From Myxococcota bacterium (GTDB lineage Bacteria; Myxococcota_A; UBA796; UBA2385): a stretch of 64,000 nt of DNA. Both the position numbers and the translations under genes were made by a program. Every line of letters starts with the position of its first letter. Position 1 is the stretch's first letter. The notes below the pieces were generated by a model, which had not been told where the DNA came from, ran no database searches, and saw only the letters and a program-made list of their open reading frames with translations. Positions 19,664 to 31,020 of the stretch are shown here, one piece after another. The DNA is taken from assembly GCA_044344255.1 (NCBI GenBank), contig JBIJDH010000004.1, positions 256,001 through 320,000 on the forward strand. The letters are read 5' to 3'.

Positions 19664-21574
19664 TCAGACGTCCAGCACGTCGACGAGGGCCATCCACTCG
19701 GTGATCTCGCGGTATCGGGTCTGCGCGTCCTTGCCCATCAGGTCGCTCACCACCTTGTCCGTCTCGAGCCGGGCCCCCTCCGGGATCGCGACCCGGAGGA
19801 GGCGTCGCTTCGTGGGATCGAGGGTCGTCTCGTACAGGGTCTTGGGCATCATCTCGCCGAGCCCCTTGAAGCGGCTGATCTCCGGCTTGATCCGGGGCGG
19901 AATCCGCTTCAGCAGGCGGTCGCGCTCGACCTCGTCCTTCGCCCACCAAGTCTGTTTACCTGCATCGATTCGGTAGAGGGGGGGCTGTGCGAGGAACACA
20001 TGCCCCTTGTCGATGAGCGGCGTCAGGTAGCGGTAGAAGAAGGTGAGCAGCAAGGTGGCGATGTGGTGGCCGTCGCTGTCGGCGTCCATCAGCAGGATGA
20101 TCTTGTTGTACCGGAGGCGGCTGAGATCAAAGTCCTTGCCCACCCCGCAGCCCACGGCGGAGACGATGTCGTTCAGCTCGCTGTTCTCGAGCACCTTCTT
20201 CAGCGTGGCTTGCTCGGCGTTGAGCACCTTCCCTCGCAGGGGGAGGATGGCCTGGAAGGCGCGGTCTCGACCCTGTTTGGCGGAGCCACCGGCGCTGTCC
20301 CCTTCGACGATGAAGAGCTCACAGAGGCCTGGATCGCCACTTGAACAGTCGGCCAGCTTGCCGGGGAGGTTGAGGCGGCGGCTGACGGGGCTCTTCCGGC
20401 GCACCTGCTCGGTGGCGTCGCGGGAGGCCTGCCGGGCGCGGGCCGAGAGCACGACCCGGCTCAGGATGGCGTCAGCCTGGCTGCGGTGGTCGTGGAGCCA
20501 CTTCTCGAGGGCCACGCGGACCACTCCGTCCACCTGGCCTTTGACCTCGACGTTGTTCAGCTTGTCCTTCGTCTGTCCCTGGAACTGGGGCTCGGCGATG
20601 AAGATCGAGCAGACGGCCACGATGCCCTCGCGGATGTCCTCCGCGGTCAGCTTGATGCCCTTCGGGATCTGCACCTCGTGGGTGTCGACGTAGTTACGCA
20701 GCGCCTTGGCGACGGCGTCCTTCAACCCCTGCTCGTGGGTGCCGCCGTCGCGGGTGGGGATGCCGTTGACGAAGGACAGGAAGCGCTCCCGGGGCGCGTC
20801 CGACCAGGAGAGGGCGAGCTGGATGCGCGGCTCGGCCTCGCGCTCGAGGAGGAAGGGGCGGTCGGTGGTCATGGTGACCCCCGACTGCTGCACGGCGTGC
20901 TGGAGGAACTCCGAGACCCCGCCGGGATGGCAGTACTCCTCCCGCTTGCCGGTGGTGTCATCCGCGAAGCTGACCTTCAGCCCCTTGTTGAGGAAGGAGC
21001 AGGTCTCGAGGTGCTCGCTGATCACCTCGGCGTCGAAGACGAACTCTCCGAAGATCTCGTCGTCGGGCGTAAAGCTGATCGCGGTGCCGGTCGCCCGGGT
21101 GGCGCGGCCCTTGCGCATCGGCCCCGTGGGCTTTCCCCGTCGAAATTCCTGGGCCCACTCAAAGCCGTCTCGGCGAACCGTGGCGCCGAGGTGGACGGAG
21201 AGGGCGTTGACCACGCTGGAGCCGACGCCGTGGAGGCCGCCGGAGGTGGAGTACCCGCCCTCTCCGAACTTGCCGCCGGAGTGCAGCGTGGTGAGGATCA
21301 CCTCCAGCGCTGGCTTGCCGACCTTGGGGTGCACGTCGACCGGGATGCCGCGGCCGTTGTCGGTGACCACCACCGTGCGCCCGTCGGCCTTGATGCGGAC
21401 CTCGATCTGGCTCGCGTGACCGTTCATGGCCTCGTCGACCGCATTATCTACGATCTCGCGGACGAGGTGGTGCAGCCCCTCCTTCCCGGTGCCGCCGATG
21501 TACATGCCGGGGCGCTTGCGGACCGGCTCCAGGCCCTCGAGGACGGAGATCGAGGAGGCGTCATAGGTGCTCAT
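19664..21574 (-). CDS. parE: Type IIA topoisomerase subunit B (ParE/GyrB-like)
   Basis: VRKRPGMYIG, EIVDNAVDE, GGLHGVG, VEGDSAGGS, PLRGK, DADSDG, RFKGLGEM; 636 aa without the long GyrB insert. parE versus gyrB is inferred. Confidence 0.85.
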   Translation of the reverse strand: MSTYDASSISVLEGLEPVRKRPGMYIGGTGKEGLHHLVREIVDNAVDEAMNGHASQIEVRIKADGRTVVVTDNGRGIPVDVHPKVGKPALEVILTTLHSGGKFGEGGYSTSGGLHGVGSSVVNALSVHLGATVRRDGFEWAQEFRRGKPTGPMRKGRATRATGTAISFTPDDEIFGEFVFDAEVISEHLETCSFLNKGLKVSFADDTTGKREEYCHPGGVSEFLQHAVQQSGVTMTTDRPFLLEREAEPRIQLALSWSDAPRERFLSFVNGIPTRDGGTHEQGLKDAVAKALRNYVDTHEVQIPKGIKLTAEDIREGIVAVCSIFIAEPQFQGQTKDKLNNVEVKGQVDGVVRVALEKWLHDHRSQADAILSRVVLSARARQASRDATEQVRRKSPVSRRLNLPGKLADCSSGDPGLCELFIVEGDSAGGSAKQGRDRAFQAILPLRGKVLNAEQATLKKVLENSELNDIVSAVGCGVGKDFDLSRLRYNKIILLMDADSDGHHIATLLLTFFYRYLTPLIDKGHVFLAQPPLYRIDAGKQTWWAKDEVERDRLLKRIPPRIKPEISRFKGLGEMMPKTLYETTLDPTKRRLLRVAIPEGARLETDKVVSDLMGKDAQTRYREITEWMALVDVLDV

Positions 21575-21577
21575 GGC

Positions 21578-23989
21578 TCACTCCTCGCCGCGGCCGACGG
21601 GGCTCGGCCGGTCGTCGTCGCGGGGCTCATCGGGGGGGCGCAGCAGGTCGAGGCGGCAGAGGTTGGGCCTCCACGGCTGGAGCTTTCCGCTGCGGATGAC
21701 CCCCTTGCCCCGGGCGGCGCGGGCGCCCTGGAAGCGGCTCGGGCTGATGATCTCGAGCTTGCCCACGCCGGTCGTGACCGTGGGGCCGACGGCCTTGTCG
21801 CGGCTGAGCTCGAAGGCGAGCAGCGTGTCTCCCTCGTCGAGCTTGATCGCCGTGACCCCCTTGCCGGCGGCCTTGACCACGCTCACCTCGGTCACCGAGA
21901 AGCAGAGCGCCCGGCCCTCGGTGCTGGCGACGCAGACCGTCTCGGTGCCATCGGAGATGAGCACGGAGATCACGCCGTCGTCGGCCTCGTCGGTCTTGAC
22001 GTACCGGCGGCCGTTCTTGTTGGACACCTCGGCGTGCGTGGAGAGCGGGAAGCGGAGGCAGCGGCCCTGTCGGGTGACCGCGACGCCGTGCGGCGGCGGG
22101 GCCTCGATGTTGCCGGCCTCGTCGGGGACGCCGTCCAGCAGGGCCTCGGGCACCTCGGGGAGGGAGGCGCGGTCGTGGATGGCCACGCCCACCACCCGCT
22201 CGCCGTCGGCGAAGGAGAAGTGGCGCTGGACGGGCTCCCCGTGGCCGGCCGTGCTCACGAGATCGTCGATGCGCAGCACATAGGCGCCGCCGCGGTCGGT
22301 GAAGAAGGTGACGGTGGCGCGGGTGCTGCCCTTGCCGATCCAGCCCACGGCGTCGCCCTCGCGGACGCGGATGCGCTCGACGCCGTTGAAGCTGCCCTGG
22401 CGCTTCACCCAGCCGTCGCGGGTGACGACGACGTAGGCGTCTTCGGCGAGGATGTAGGCGTTCTCGTCGTAGGAGGGGTCGTCACCCTCGAGGCCGATGT
22501 CGGTGCGGCGCGGCTCGGCGTAGGCCTTACGGAGCTCCTGCAGCTCCTTGCGCACCTCCGCCTGGAGCAGGCGCTCGCTGGAGAGCAGCCCTTCGATGTG
22601 GAGGGCCGCCGCCCGCTTCTCTCCGAGCTCCTCTTGAATCGCCAGGATCTCGAGCTTGGCCAGCTTGTAGAGGCGGAGCTCGAGGATGGCTTCGGTCTGC
22701 AGATCGTCGAGGTTGAAGCGGTCCATCAGGCGCTCAGCGGCGTCGCGTTTGCCCTCTGATGCGCGGATGATTCGGATGACCTCGTCGAGCACGTCGAAGA
22801 CGCGGGCGAAGCCGTCGAGGATGTGGATGCGGGCGCGGAGCTGCTCGAGCTCGTAGATGAAGCGGCGGCGCACCGTCGTGATGCGGAAGTCGAGCCAGTA
22901 CCGGAGCATCTCTCGGAGCGAGCAGCGCATCGGCACCGCGGGCAGCTCGGAGTCCTCGGCGGGGACGAGGCAGGTCAGGTTGACCGGGAAGCTGGTCTGG
23001 AGGGCGGTGTGCTTGAAGAGGAAGGCCATCGCCGCCTGCTCGTCGCCCTCCTGGCGGAGCTCCAGCACCACCCGCACGACGTCGGTGGACTCATCGCGCA
23101 CGTCTTGGAGCTGGGGGATCTTCCGTTCAGAGATGAGCAGACCGATCTTCTCGACCAGCACCGCCTTGTTGGTGGCGTAGGGCACCTCGGTCACGACGAT
23201 GAAGTGCTTACGGCCCACCTTCTCGGTGGTCCAGCGGGCCCGGGTGCGGACGCTGCCCTGGCCCGTCTCGTAGATGTCGGCCAGCTCTTCGCGACTGTTC
23301 AGGATAATCCCGCCGGTGGGGAAGTCAGGGCCCTTCACCTTCTTGCACAGCGCGGCGCCGGTCACGTCGGGATCGTCGATCAGCAGTGTGACGGCGTCGA
23401 TGATCTCGCGCAGGTTGTGCGGCGGGATCCGGGTGGCCATTCCCACCGCGATGCCCTCCGCCCCGTTGACGAGGAGCTGGGGGAGCTGGGCAGGGAGCAC
23501 CACGGGCTCAGCGTGCTGGCCGTCGTAATTGGGCCGGAAGTCGACCGTCTGCTGCTTGATCTCGGAGAGGAGATCGACCGCGAGTGGGCGGAGCTTGCAC
23601 TCGGTATACCGCATGGCCGCGGCGTTATCACCGTCCATCGAGCCGAAGTTGCCCTGGCCGTCGATGAGCATGTGGCGGAGGGAGAAGGGCTGCGCCATGC
23701 GCACGAGCGCGTCGTAGATGCTGGTGTCGCCGTGGGGGTGGTACTTCGCCATCACCTCGCCGACCACCGCCGCGCTCTTTCGGTAGCGGGCGTCCGGCGT
23801 CAGGTGGAGGTTATTGTACATGGCGTACAGAATGCGCCGCTGCACCGGCTTCAGGCCGTCTCGCACGTCGGGGAGGGCGCGCGCGGTGATGACCGAGAGG
23901 GCGTAGTTCAGGTAGCGGTGGCGCGTGACCTCGTGGAGGCTTGCGTCGTCGATACCGGAGTGCGGAGGGGTCGATGTGGGCTTTGGCAT
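21578..23989 (-). CDS. parC: Type IIA topoisomerase subunit A (ParC/GyrA-like)
   Basis: [37 protein letters not shown]; no GyrA-box (QRRGGKG) seen in the CTD. Confidence 0.85.
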
Positions 23990-27372: not shown

Positions 27373-28239
27373 ATGCCCTCCTTCGTTCCAGATTCCTCTC
27401 TCAAGCACACCTTCACTGGGATCGTCCCAGACAAAAGTGAGTACGAAAATGAGGATTTCTCAGGGAGTGCTTTCGTTGACGTTGGCGCCAAGAAGTGCGT
27501 TTTCAAGTCGTGCAAGTTCAAGTTCTGCACGTTCGAGAGGTCGTACTTCCGTGGTGCGCTTTTCGAAGACTGTGATTTCCAGGGAGCTCGATTTCGAGAT
27601 AGTAACTTCCGAGATGCAATATTCAAGGGTAATTGCGTGTTCTATTATGCTACGTTTGTGGGAACTTTGATCGAATCAGAGCAAATGCTCACGAAGTTGC
27701 CACCGTATCCCAACCTCAAGTTGGAGTTCGCGAGGAGTCTCCGTGCGAACTTCGCGGGACTTGGGATGCATGTTGATGCACAAAGTTTTTTTGACGTGGA
27801 ATTAGCCTCCGAATACGAGCACTTCTCAAAGATTGTCGGCTCGGGCGAGACATACTACACTACCCGTTATCCGACCGTTCGTGAGCGCTTTCCCTACTGG
27901 GTGAAACTCGGTTTGCATCGCCTTGAGGCGTTCGTTTGGGGCCACGGCGCGAGTCCACTACTTCTCGCGCGTGCGACTTTGTTCGGACTCGCAGTTCTGT
28001 CCCTCGTTTTCATGTTTCTGGCGCCGGGCTACGGTGGAAGGGAATTCTCCTCGGACCCGTTCGGCGCGGTAGGTGACAGCGTCTACTACACCTTGCTCAC
28101 GTTCTTCAGTGCTGATGACCAGGGTTTTCGACCGGTCTCGGCGGTGACGAAGGGGTTCACGGTGCTCACGCTGCTTTATGGCTACTTGACGCTGGGGTTG
28201 TTCGTGACCGCTATGTATCGGCGTCTGGCTAGGATTTAG
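27373..28239 (+). CDS. Pentapeptide-repeat protein with C-terminal ion-channel-like TM domain (HalA-like effector)
   Basis: Tandem xFxxx pentapeptides (DFSGS AFVDV ... DFQGA RFRDS NFRDA), WGHGASP, TM-pore helix (DSVYYTLLTF)-P-TM; ATG 27373 follows GGAG. Confidence 0.8.
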   Translation: MPSFVPDSSLKHTFTGIVPDKSEYENEDFSGSAFVDVGAKKCVFKSCKFKFCTFERSYFRGALFEDCDFQGARFRDSNFRDAIFKGNCVFYYATFVGTLIESEQMLTKLPPYPNLKLEFARSLRANFAGLGMHVDAQSFFDVELASEYEHFSKIVGSGETYYTTRYPTVRERFPYWVKLGLHRLEAFVWGHGASPLLLARATLFGLAVLSLVFMFLAPGYGGREFSSDPFGAVGDSVYYTLLTFFSADDQGFRPVSAVTKGFTVLTLLYGYLTLGLFVTAMYRRLARI

Positions 28240-28242
28240 CCC

Positions 28243-28971
28243 TTGCCTGTTCTAACCAACATAGTATGTGCTAGGCTCTTTGGTTCGAGGGTTCGGGGGG
28301 ACCACGATGACGTTAGCGATCACGACGTGCTTGTCGTGCTTGAGGACAAGTTGAATCCCGATGCGCTCGCCCGGATTGAGGACGAGGTGAGCCTGGAGTT
28401 GGGAGTACGGGTGGATGTATCCTTCTACTCCGAGACCCACCTTCGAAAGCTGTTTGAAGGTGGGCACCTTTTCGCGTGGCACCTCTGGCGTGAATCAGTG
28501 CCGCTTGCCGGTCGGATCCCAGACCTTATTGAGATAATCGGTCCGCCGGAAGCGAACACCGATGCGCGGCAGGAGATTCAAGACTTGCTTCTGCTTCTGT
28601 GTTCAATTCCTTCGAAGCGTCTGAATAGTCGGACTTTGGTGTACGATGCCGGTATTCTGTACGTGATAATTCGCAATGTGGGAACGAGCGCTACTTGGTT
28701 CTTTGGTCCATCTCGGCTCGACTTCGGCCGGTACTCTCCCTGGGCACTGAATCGTCTCGGCGGGCCGCCGCCCCCGATCGACGAGGAAGGTTATCATAGG
28801 CTTCTGCATGCCCGCAAGGCCGGAATGGCCGGGTTGCCGGCTCCGGCGATTTCGTTGGAGGAGTTGCGGCGGTGGTACGACCAGACCGCCGCTTGGATAG
28901 GAGCGGTATGCCGGCAAATCGACAGTTCACTCTCCGACGGCGAGATTGAGGCCTTCCTTACGAAGCTGTAG
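28243..28971 (+). CDS. Pol-beta superfamily nucleotidyltransferase with helical C-terminal domain (HalB-like)
   Basis: FGSRVRGD..SDHD plus third acid in VDV; GHLFAWHL; TTG start 3 nt after the upstream stop. Confidence 0.8.
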   Translation: MPVLTNIVCARLFGSRVRGDHDDVSDHDVLVVLEDKLNPDALARIEDEVSLELGVRVDVSFYSETHLRKLFEGGHLFAWHLWRESVPLAGRIPDLIEIIGPPEANTDARQEIQDLLLLLCSIPSKRLNSRTLVYDAGILYVIIRNVGTSATWFFGPSRLDFGRYSPWALNRLGGPPPPIDEEGYHRLLHARKAGMAGLPAPAISLEELRRWYDQTAAWIGAVCRQIDSSLSDGEIEAFLTKL

Positions 28972-29283
28972 GAGGTACTCTGCGAGTAGGGCAGCCCCAT
29001 CGAGGGCATCCACTGCCGGAGCTGGGTCGAAGACTGTTCGGCTTCTGTCGGCGATGGTTCCTGCGACATTGGACAGGCGGACGAGCGTCTCTGCGGCTCG
29101 TACCACTGCAAATGGAGCACCCTTGCCGCCCCGAGTGTCGATCCAGCGCACGATGGCCGGTTGACTTAGTCCAGCTAACTGCTCACCGTCTGCGAATGCA
29201 ATATTGGTAACCGCAATCACATCACGCTCGAAGGCGACGCGCAGGCGGAACCTGCGCCGGCGCTCGGTTTCATTGGATTCCAC
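28927..29283 (-). CDS. Small hypothetical protein (118 aa)
   Basis: GTG 29283 lies within the last codons of the nuclease gene; protein-like sequence RRFRLRVAFERDVI..LAGLSQPAIVRW; overlaps the NTase 3' end by 45 nt. Confidence 0.55.
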   Translation of the reverse strand: MESNETERRRRFRLRVAFERDVIAVTNIAFADGEQLAGLSQPAIVRWIDTRGGKGAPFAVVRAAETLVRLSNVAGTIADRSRTVFDPAPAVDALDGAALLAEYLLQLRKEGLNLAVGE

Positions 29284-30106
29284 TGATGTTCTCCGGAAGA
29301 GTGGCCTGGGCCTCAGAGGCGGCACGCAGCAGGGTATCCAGTGCAGCGTTCTCGTGCTCTGCGGCCACGATGCTGTGGAATGCGAGGGTCGTAAGGGCTC
29401 CCAACCGCGCCTCGTAAATCGACAGGTTTGTTATGGCTACGGGAGCACCAGTGTGAGAGATTCCGAATCCCCGAGCCAACAGTCCGTAGCTGGCCAACTG
29501 AAGGACTGTCTGCCCGTAATAGGCATTTCGTCCAGTCTTTACTTCGACGATCGCTTCATCCAGGGCGAGATCAGCATCCGCCCCGCCTACGGCGCGTGAG
29601 CCTATTCCAAACGTTGGGTTCAGAACGAGTCTCATTCTTGGCTTGAACTTCGACCATGGAACTACCGCGTAGAGCGCGCGCAACTCTTCAGTCGAATCGC
29701 ATTGGACGGTGAGCCTCGTCGGCCCCCTTCCTCGGCCTCTGTAGAATGCATCGAAGTCGGCTAGCGCAATACAGGCTCCGGCCTGAGCGGGCGTGATCGT
29801 TCCGGGCCTGAGTGTGCTCATAATACTCAGTGCGCCGAAGAGGCTCGCCTTCGCTTGCCTTTTGTTCATTGCCTTCTCGCCTGACACCAGCCGATCGACC
29901 AGTTCTGCATCCGACTCGGCGGCGAGCGCCCACCCAGCACCGGAGAGACCCCATCGGAGCGCGTAGTCGAACGCTGTTCCCACACGGGACCCGTAGGGCA
30001 CCAGGTCTTGCGGTGAACCTCGGGACTCTTCCATGGGGGGATACCGGACGAAGGGTGCCATCGCCGCAACCACCTTCGGTAAACGCAGAAGTTCTGTAAG
30101 GCTCAC
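29270..30106 (-). CDS. PD-(D/E)xK nuclease-like protein
   Basis: LNPTFG..GGADADL..IVEVKT followed by QLASY; earlier VGTAFDY helix. Confidence 0.7.
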   Translation of the reverse strand: MSLTELLRLPKVVAAMAPFVRYPPMEESRGSPQDLVPYGSRVGTAFDYALRWGLSGAGWALAAESDAELVDRLVSGEKAMNKRQAKASLFGALSIMSTLRPGTITPAQAGACIALADFDAFYRGRGRGPTRLTVQCDSTEELRALYAVVPWSKFKPRMRLVLNPTFGIGSRAVGGADADLALDEAIVEVKTGRNAYYGQTVLQLASYGLLARGFGISHTGAPVAITNLSIYEARLGALTTLAFHSIVAAEHENAALDTLLRAASEAQATLPENISGIQ

Positions 30107-30882
30107 GCGTGTACATCGACCTCAATGGTCTTCCGGGGGGCAATCGGAAGCTGGCGCTTGCGAAGTAGGGCCTCAAGGTCTGTCCCGGTGAGCCAGGAGC
30201 GCAGGGCCTTCTGGCCGACCGACTCGTCGAGATACTCCTGCCCTCCTTCCTTCAAGCGAAGGGCGACTGCGATATCGTGGTCATGGGTCTCCCGGAGCAG
30301 ACGGAAGCTGGCGTCGCCGGGATCGACGACGAGATCCATGTTCCGCCAACTCTCGTCGAAGTGTTGCTCGGTACCGTAATGGTCCAGCCCGGGTGTGATG
30401 TGGTAGCCGAAGTTGTTCTCGGCGCCGAGCGAATGGGTCTTGTGAATCGTGAGCGAGGCACCGTCTCCCGTGCCTTGGTTGCTCTCGTAGAGCTGACTCG
30501 TCAGGTTGACGACAGTGGAATCCTCTGCGCACCAGTCGCGCCGACGGGCCAGAATGCCTGGAAGGTGCTTGGGCTTGGCCTCTTCGAGGGCGCAGCAGCG
30601 CGCGGCCAACTCCTGCATAGGCGCGTCGGACTCGGCTTCGAACCACTGGTAGAAGGCATTCCGAGCGACCCTCGTCTCGGTGTCCCCCTTCGTCAGGGCG
30701 CAAACCGCCGATGCGAGGCGGCCGCACTCCTCGGTCCCCCCGGCGGAGATCAGGGCCCAGACCCACTCCAGTGGATCCAGCTTCCGTTCCCGCTTCAGCG
30801 CTCCCAGGCGCCTCGCTGTCTCCATCACCGAGGCTGCCGGCAGCATCTCGTTCAACTTCGCCCGGAATTGCTCGGCGTCCAT
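30103..30882 (-). pseudogene. Truncated, degenerate IS4-family DDE transposase
   Basis: KRERKLD N-terminus, EDSTVVNL (first Asp), VVDPGD where DxGY is expected, RLK; only about 260 codons, no C-terminal Glu region; GGAGG RBS before ATG 30882. Confidence 0.7.
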
Positions 30883-31020
30883 CTGCCACCTCCTCAACAC
30901 GACATGGAGAGCTACCCTGAAAAGAAGGGGCGATCAACCACGCGAGTCGGAGCGGGCGTAAGACTCGTACCCAGCCTGACCGAAAGGGATCGATCTACGC
31001 CGAGGATGAGCCTTTGCGGA

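Follow-up and report, generated by a model that had tools for sequence, protein, structure and literature searches.

Hailong is presented in the accessible parts of three reviews as a system of two genes, which encode HalA and HalB (PMC13434031, PMC13276650, PMC13586616). According to the text available from one of these reviews, HalB primes DNA synthesis on a tyrosine hydroxyl, and its product gates the channel HalA by inhibition (PMC13434031). A 'Hailong' carried by P4 satellites is likewise described as comprising two proteins (PMC13586616). NCBIfam contains a model for each Hailong protein, namely NF051894 for HalA (cut-off, 250 bits) and NF051895 for HalB (cut-off, 190 bits). Hailong structures have also been deposited (PDB 9nyi, 9dbh/9dbi/9dbj); the solved HalB chain has 229 residues, and 9dbj is mutated at R164. 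Two reference Hailong loci were used for comparison. In one of them (L024), both proteins score above the cut-offs (236.3 bits for HalB and 354.2 bits for HalA), and in the other (L036), HalA scores 266.9 bits and HalB 185.1 bits, the latter being slightly below the cut-off of 190.

The locus analysed here lies in a 64,000-nucleotide stretch of DNA from a Myxococcota bacterium, the whole of which is referred to as the window. The original prediction placed a module of two genes at 27373..28971, encoding a pentapeptide/channel effector and a nucleotidyltransferase (NTase), and regarded it as a Hailong system or a related nucleotide-gated channel defence module. The features discussed in this study are as follows.

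27373..28239, + strand: gene A, a HalA-like effector of 288 aa (Pfam, hydropathy, hhalign and an ESM Atlas neighbour)
28243..28971, + strand: gene B, a HalB-like Pol-beta NTase with a HEPN-like helical domain, 242 aa (AlphaFold2, Foldseek, VIA and hhalign)
28927..29283, − strand: gene C, a four-helix protein of no known family, 118 aa (called gene P0174, homologues and a predicted model)
29270..30106, − strand: an ORF of 278 aa that weakly resembles PD-(D/E)XK nucleases, listed as a neighbour only
30103..30900, − strand: a fragment of an IS4-family transposase on the margin of the low-GC island (NCBIfam NF033592)

Relationship of genes A and B to Hailong

The two genes are 3 nt apart in a low-GC island, as had been described: B starts with TTG 3 nt downstream of the end of A, and the GC contents of A and B are 0.527 and 0.572, respectively, versus 0.709 for the window. 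The low-GC stretch extends from 27 to 31 kb. The domain organization proposed for the effector was also confirmed. Residues 22–87 of A are pentapeptide repeats forming a beta-helix (Pfam, E 9e-16), and hydropathy analysis identified two hydrophobic segments (196–214 and 262–280), which represent two transmembrane (TM) segments. The helical linker of A carries the conserved motifs YYxxKY and WGHGE. The closest ESM Atlas model to residues 96–288 belongs to a pentapeptide/Ion_trans_2 channel cluster (TM-score 0.84). KirBac3.1 was matched only at E 1.6, by a profile of four close relatives of A. The TxGYG potassium filter is not present in A, the pore region of which reads TLLTFFSA, and is not conserved across 19 relatives. 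PADLOC 2.0 yielded no model matching A.

B carries the NTP_transf_2/Polbeta domains (Pfam). The catalytic GS/DxD residues named in the original prediction are conserved, with G14, S15 and D26 present in all 139 relatives and D28 in 138 of them. The same does not apply to D58, because this position is variable (D in 51, S in 51 and E in 10 of the 139 relatives) and is acidic in only 61. B also has a GxLFAxH motif and the arginines R144 and R191; the latter is the counterpart of R164 in HalB and is an arginine in 138/139 relatives. With the AlphaFold2 model of B (pLDDT 93) as a query, HalB chains occupied all of the Foldseek ranks from 1 to 10. The top match in VIA was likewise HalB, with residues 6–221 of the model superposed on HalB 1–186 (9dbj; Z 14.3, rmsd 3.0, 179 aligned); among the runners-up, AadA reached Z 11.0, and the HEPN-like helical domain reached Z 12.3 to 4nqf. 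At the profile level, 139 B-family sequences aligned with eight HalB-like sequences at 99.3% (hhalign, E 3e-20). The family of A (19 sequences) aligned with two true HalA proteins at 97.9% (E 4e-13), and this alignment spans residues 26–244 of A and 63–313 of HalA. It therefore continues past the repeats, with the last helix remaining outside. Of the checks put forward for the prediction, profile comparison related A to HalA, and both profile and structure comparison related B to HalB. Because HalB is the top structural match of B and also aligns with it at the profile level, and because A aligns with HalA, common descent of A and B with the Hailong proteins is well supported at the level of sequences and predicted structures.

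The scores against the Hailong models are nevertheless far below the cut-offs. A scored 27.9 of the 250 bits of NF051894 (∼11%), in the repeats only, and B scored 37.4 of the 190 bits of NF051895 (∼20%). None of 145 relatives of B reached the HalB cut-off (best score, 60.2 bits; 12 partial proteins of a total of 157 were excluded), and none of 19 A-family proteins reached that of HalA (best score, 58.6 bits). The two reference HalA proteins exceed A in length by ∼60–70 aa. Relative to HalA, A is missing ∼55 residues at the N-terminus and ∼28 residues internally, and the missing parts include the basic/aromatic segment at the N-terminus of HalA. Owing to the loss of these segments, the site for oligo-dA may not be kept in A. 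A quick maximum-likelihood analysis of 33 NTases placed the B family and the HalB-like group on either side of a long branch with an SH-aLRT value of 100, the backbone inside the B family being left open.

The most conspicuous difference concerns the C-terminus of the NTase. The structural match of B ends at residue 186 of HalB, and the C-terminal arm of HalB has no counterpart in B. In the alignment, each of the eight HalB-like references carries a tyrosine among its four final residues, which fits the C-terminal location that the original Hailong abstract reportedly gives for the priming tyrosine of HalB. By contrast, B contains no tyrosine in its last 29 residues, and only 20 of its 139 relatives have a tyrosine in the last six, which is below the ∼29 expected from the tyrosine frequency of 0.038. 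On the basis of the sub-cut-off scores, the separate B clade, the absence of the tyrosine arm and the presence of a third conserved gene (see below), we conclude that the A–B module is the closest kin of Hailong, yet is not canonical Hailong and forms a separate sister clade. The predicted relationship to a nucleotide-gated channel system is therefore upheld by the homology to HalA and HalB, whereas membership in Hailong itself is not.

A third gene associated with B

The first signs of gene C were an ORF of ∼100 aa that followed the NTase gene in plasmid matches, and relatives of the NTase that were over-long by ∼100 aa. The ORFs located 3′ of B in related loci were found to constitute one family. 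A profile built from 13 of these downstream ORFs recovered the gene in the window and those in six loci not used in the building (L006, L008, L013, L025, L027 and L028), with E values of ≤8e-15, and a later profile also recovered those in L041, L043 and L044. The related loci comprise 13 in genomes, 4 in viral contigs and 7 in plasmids. In 23 of these 24 loci (22 of 23 distinct loci, as L026 repeats L005), A and B are followed by C. The module had been described as consisting of two genes within 27373..28971, and this view needs to be revised because C extends beyond that interval on the minus strand. In addition, B and C are fused in four proteins (P0081, P0095, P0096 and P0152), a number that refers to proteins and not to separate origins. 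C was not found in any of nine canonical HalB-like loci, and C and the tyrosine tail were mutually exclusive in the loci seen.

In the window, C starts with GTG preceded by a GGAGA motif resembling a ribosome-binding site. It converges on B, overlapping the 3′ end of the latter by 45 nt (28927–28971). The host genome contains only one copy of C. The convergent B/C layout is shared by two close relatives (P0008/P0178 and P0009/P0179), which show a unique antisense fit of 102 nt; none of 200 shuffles reached 30 nt, and cross pairs did not fit. The convergent overlap is a trait of a subclade, in which C has been kept despite the inversion. C is easy to miss, as it lies antisense in the window and is omitted from the annotation tables of three of the seven plasmid loci (L018, L041 and L044). 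The sole locus without a C detected by the profile is L042, which was found on a Priestia megaterium plasmid (3998–4417). It represents a divergent Bacillota version with A, B and a third ORF of 139 aa, and this ORF has FER and L.GLT motifs and an E value of 0.05 to the C profile, and is possibly a distant C.

Seven residues of C (F12, E19, R20, N27, G38, W47 and S81) are invariant in an alignment of 28 rows, including one duplicate. S81 was also kept in all of 10 additional sequences, i.e. in 38/38 rows. The predicted model of C consists of four helices (pLDDT 82), with S81 within a helix. Searches for known families and folds gave a best E value of 0.015 in Pfam (11 homologues), no match in NCBIfam for three of three sequences and none in PHROGs. 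Foldseek gave no match at E ≤0.001, the ESM Atlas no usable match, and a wide VIA search only generic helical bundles (best Z 7.2). Neither a HEPN fold nor an RNase motif was detected in C, although a fold can be present even when matches are weak or lacking. An origin of C as a fragment split off from the HalB tail or from HalA was rejected (hhalign, 0.1% for both).

A complex of B and C was predicted by ESMFold2. The pair scored 0.86 in three runs, compared with 0.57 for the best of three controls; the mark applied was reached by 116 of 157 solved pairs and 2 of 215 mismatched pairs, counts that are only approximate here because custom alignments and a ligand were supplied. Contact agreement among the B–C runs was at least 76%, and the partner pLDDT was at least 77. 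In the model, residues 4–46 of C are placed against the helical domain of B (107–138 and 190–200), and five of the seven invariant positions of C (F12, E19, R20, N27 and G38) contact the conserved Y134–D135 and A193–G197 of B. These features suggest that C probably binds the helical domain of B as a dedicated subunit. S81 is not among the residues named in the interface of this 1:1 model.

Distribution and genomic context

The linkage of A and B was conserved in all 13 genome loci, in agreement with the expectation that it would be found elsewhere, and A, B and C occur together in Pseudomonadota, Bacteroidota, Acidobacteriota and Bdellovibrionota. However, B was absent from 400 other genomes sampled from the phylum of the host, and C was not found in another 400 genomes, taken from the class to which genome G002 belongs. 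DNA searches of Escherichia coli genomes yielded no match, and tblastn with C of the window gave no plasmid match; the latter search is insensitive, since profile searches do find C on plasmids. True HalB was detected in none of 401 genomes from the class that includes genome G001, in 1 of 401 from its family and in no viral contigs. The A–B–C module is thus rare, patchy and mobile, being located in prophages, plasmids and low-GC islands.

A is broken in 3 of the 24 loci, with B and C remaining open: one copy contains an internal stop (L004:5422–5958), and two are disrupted by IS insertions (L016:1747–3441 and L044:629–1881). Such a pattern would be anticipated were A the toxic component. Most of the loci were recovered through B, which biases the set towards intact B; all five of the plasmid matches obtained with A as a seed also have an open B. 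The sole metagenome locus derived from the A alignment (L037) turned out to be a generic pentapeptide gene and was excluded from all counts.

Defence-related neighbours were searched for in 16 loci (91 ORFs of ≥170 aa), with no background set for comparison and with PADLOC matches to kinases (PD-T4-6, mad6) and ABC ATPases left out of the count. Clear defence neighbours are present in five loci, namely CBASS (L002), a DISARM-type methylase (L006), PDC-S06 (L007), an Argonaute (L010) and GapS4a (L027), and none was clear in the other 11. The CBASS operon of L002 (1444–4858; cyclase, OGG, TGT and QueC) lies directly upstream of A–B–C, and an ABC three-component system adjoins L041.

In the window, the stop of the neighbouring 278-aa ORF overlaps the start of C. 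This ORF matches RTasPDDEXK of PADLOC at E 1.4e-4 (residues 155–247) and phrog_34041, to which no function is assigned, at E 1.3e-9, and it has no Pfam match. It may be co-transcribed with C or may encode a separate defence nuclease. The IS4-family transposase fragment scored 65.3 bits against NF033592, which is under the cut-off of 115, and covers profile positions 2–219 of 332. No sigma-70 promoter match was found (0.6 expected), terminators were not in excess, and the ends of the island do not carry convincing repeats. A pair of genes for type II topoisomerase subunits (636 and 803 aa) is present 3.4 kb upstream of A on the minus strand (19664–23989). Gyrase can be bound by pentapeptide proteins. 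Nothing pointed to a link between this pair and A, which is of a membrane type and travels with B and C.

Other gene arrangements were seen among HalB-like NTases with a terminal tyrosine. In five loci on alphaproteobacterial plasmids (L029, L030, L031, L034 and L035), such NTases are encoded directly behind genes for WYL-domain proteins, not HalA, and the NTase of L029, at 213.9 bits, exceeds the HalB cut-off. An NTase of this type is also located behind a DUF1883 gene in a small Klebsiella plasmid (L033:1719–2663).

Proposed mechanism, alternatives and known systems

We consider it probable, with a likelihood of roughly 0.6, that A, B and C together constitute an anti-phage guard, a sister system of Hailong with three components. 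By analogy with Hailong, we infer the defence role, the signal chemistry and the toxicity of A. By homology and modelling, A is a pentapeptide/two-TM channel of the HalA type, and B is an NTase of the HalB type that has an intact core but no tyrosine arm. The conserved small helical protein C, which gene order and fusions link to B, would form a synthase together with B. As in Hailong, this B–C synthase would constitutively make an inhibitory nucleotide product, which would bind the cytoplasmic domain of A and hold the channel closed. Removal of the product by a phage enzyme, or disruption of B–C, would then open A, depolarize the membrane and arrest the infected cell, likewise by analogy with Hailong. 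Most speculatively, C might stand in for the lost arm of HalB, more likely as an activator or scaffold than as a protein primer.

As B has no tyrosine arm and has a dedicated partner instead, the signal is likely made or started in a new way. One version of the guard, which we regard as rather doubtful, is split priming, in which B would extend a nucleotide chain from Ser81 of C, perhaps acting in trans in a 2:2 assembly, and A would be kept closed either by the oligonucleotide attached to C or by C in its tagged form. If this were the case, C would be both primer and tripwire, and phage nucleases or an attack on C would open the channel. Since S81 is not named in the modelled interface, the 1:1 model lends no support to priming on this residue.

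Several alternatives were weighed against the guard reading. B could nucleotidylate C, for example at S81, or A itself, so that the modified protein would control the channel with no diffusible DNA signal, as might be envisaged from the type VII toxin–antitoxin system MntA–HepT (NF047752; PDB 5yep, 7bxo). MntA adds nucleotides to HepT and, like B, is an NTase with a small helical partner; B has a weak N-terminal match to MntA (30.6 of 60 bits, below the cut-off and confined to residues 6–60) and the HEPN-like helical domain similar to 4nqf (Z 12.3), and the invariant S81 of C bears a hydroxyl. However, MntA enzymes are single-domain proteins of ∼100–140 aa, whereas the two-domain B matches HalB across both domains and has GxLFAxH. 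Moreover, a HEPN fold was not detected in C. We consider this explanation unlikely. The A–B–C loci also differ from MntA–HepT in that a channel gene is always present. It appears very unlikely that the locus is an ordinary two-gene Hailong in which an internal tyrosine primes oligo-dA synthesis and C is a dispensable bystander. Y62 of B is indeed near-invariant (138/139 relatives), and C is on the opposite strand in the window, but Y62 aligns with a position in a core strand that HalB-like proteins have besides their tail tyrosine. The conservation of C in 23/24 loci, its four fusions with B and its retention after inversion also argue against a bystander.

The alternative that we take most seriously, while still doubting it, is that B makes a short free oligonucleotide without any protein primer, as in Clover, and that C is only structural or regulatory. 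The locus would still be a guard, and to this extent the explanation overlaps with the preferred one. It is consistent with the lack of the conserved terminal tyrosine in B, with the absence of S81 from the named interface residues and with the small inhibitory signal p3diT that the Clover NTase CloB makes according to the available text (PMC12265719). On the other hand, the closest solved fold to B is that of HalB, which the accessible review text describes as protein-primed (PMC13434031), and the serine invariant in 38/38 rows of C would not be explained by the modelled interface. An inverted logic resembling that of CBASS, in which C would keep B inactive and sense the phage, and the release of C would produce an activating signal that opens A, seems improbable. 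It would accommodate the binding of C to B in the model, since small partners can be inhibitors, and the difference between the signal-binding regions of A and HalA. Nevertheless, Hailong and Clover, the nearest relatives, are described in the available sources as using inhibitory signals (PMC13434031, PMC12265719), the B–C fusions are harder to reconcile with a release of C, and the contacts named in the model are on the helical domain and not on the catalytic residues of the NTase. Finally, the genes could encode a nucleotide-regulated ion channel that is carried on mobile DNA and serves in stress or ion balance rather than against phages. Pentapeptide-channel proteins are a broad group, and 11/16 loci have no clear defence neighbour. 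We nonetheless find this hardly probable given the patchy spread of the genes (0/400 genomes of the phylum and, for C, 0/400 from the class to which G002 belongs), their location on low-GC islands, plasmids and prophages, and the fact that both homologues are defence proteins.

With the three-component guard as the preferred reading, the findings have two practical consequences. The profiles of A, B and C obtained in this study cover a family that fails both NCBIfam cut-offs for Hailong. In addition, a clone that contains only A and B, with C overlooked, could be lethal or inactive. A description of a three-gene form of Hailong or of a 'HalC' was not found in the literature searched, which left aside Tan et al. 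(2025) and its supplements, where the clade may already be mentioned.

In comparison with known systems, Clover resembles the module as proposed here in that a Pol-beta NTase makes a nucleotide signal which inhibits the effector encoded next to it, but is set apart, as judged from the available description, by its effector CloA, which is a dGTPase and not a channel, and by the mention of no third gene there (PMC12265719). In DRT1, one conserved serine (S402) primes template-free DNA synthesis in defence, according to the accessible text; this system has a reverse-transcriptase fold and primes within the same protein, and its resemblance to S81 of C would be an analogy, not homology (PMC13275509). 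Hailong shares with the A–B–C module the gene order of channel followed by NTase, a homologous effector with pentapeptide repeats and two TM segments, and an NTase with a HEPN-like fold in which GS, DxD, GxLFAxH and two conserved arginines are common to B and HalB. The differences are that B has neither the terminal tyrosine nor a counterpart to the HalB residues after 186, and that a third gene, C, is conserved here, whereas the accessible parts of the reviews describe two genes (PMC13434031, PMC13276650, PMC13586616). In the Hailong precedent, the NTase primes its own product on a tyrosine and this product gates the channel; in the sister clade, the NTase core and the channel have been kept, the arm has been lost and a partner has been gained, which raises the question of how the inhibitory signal would be started, and what it would be, in a system without the tyrosine arm.
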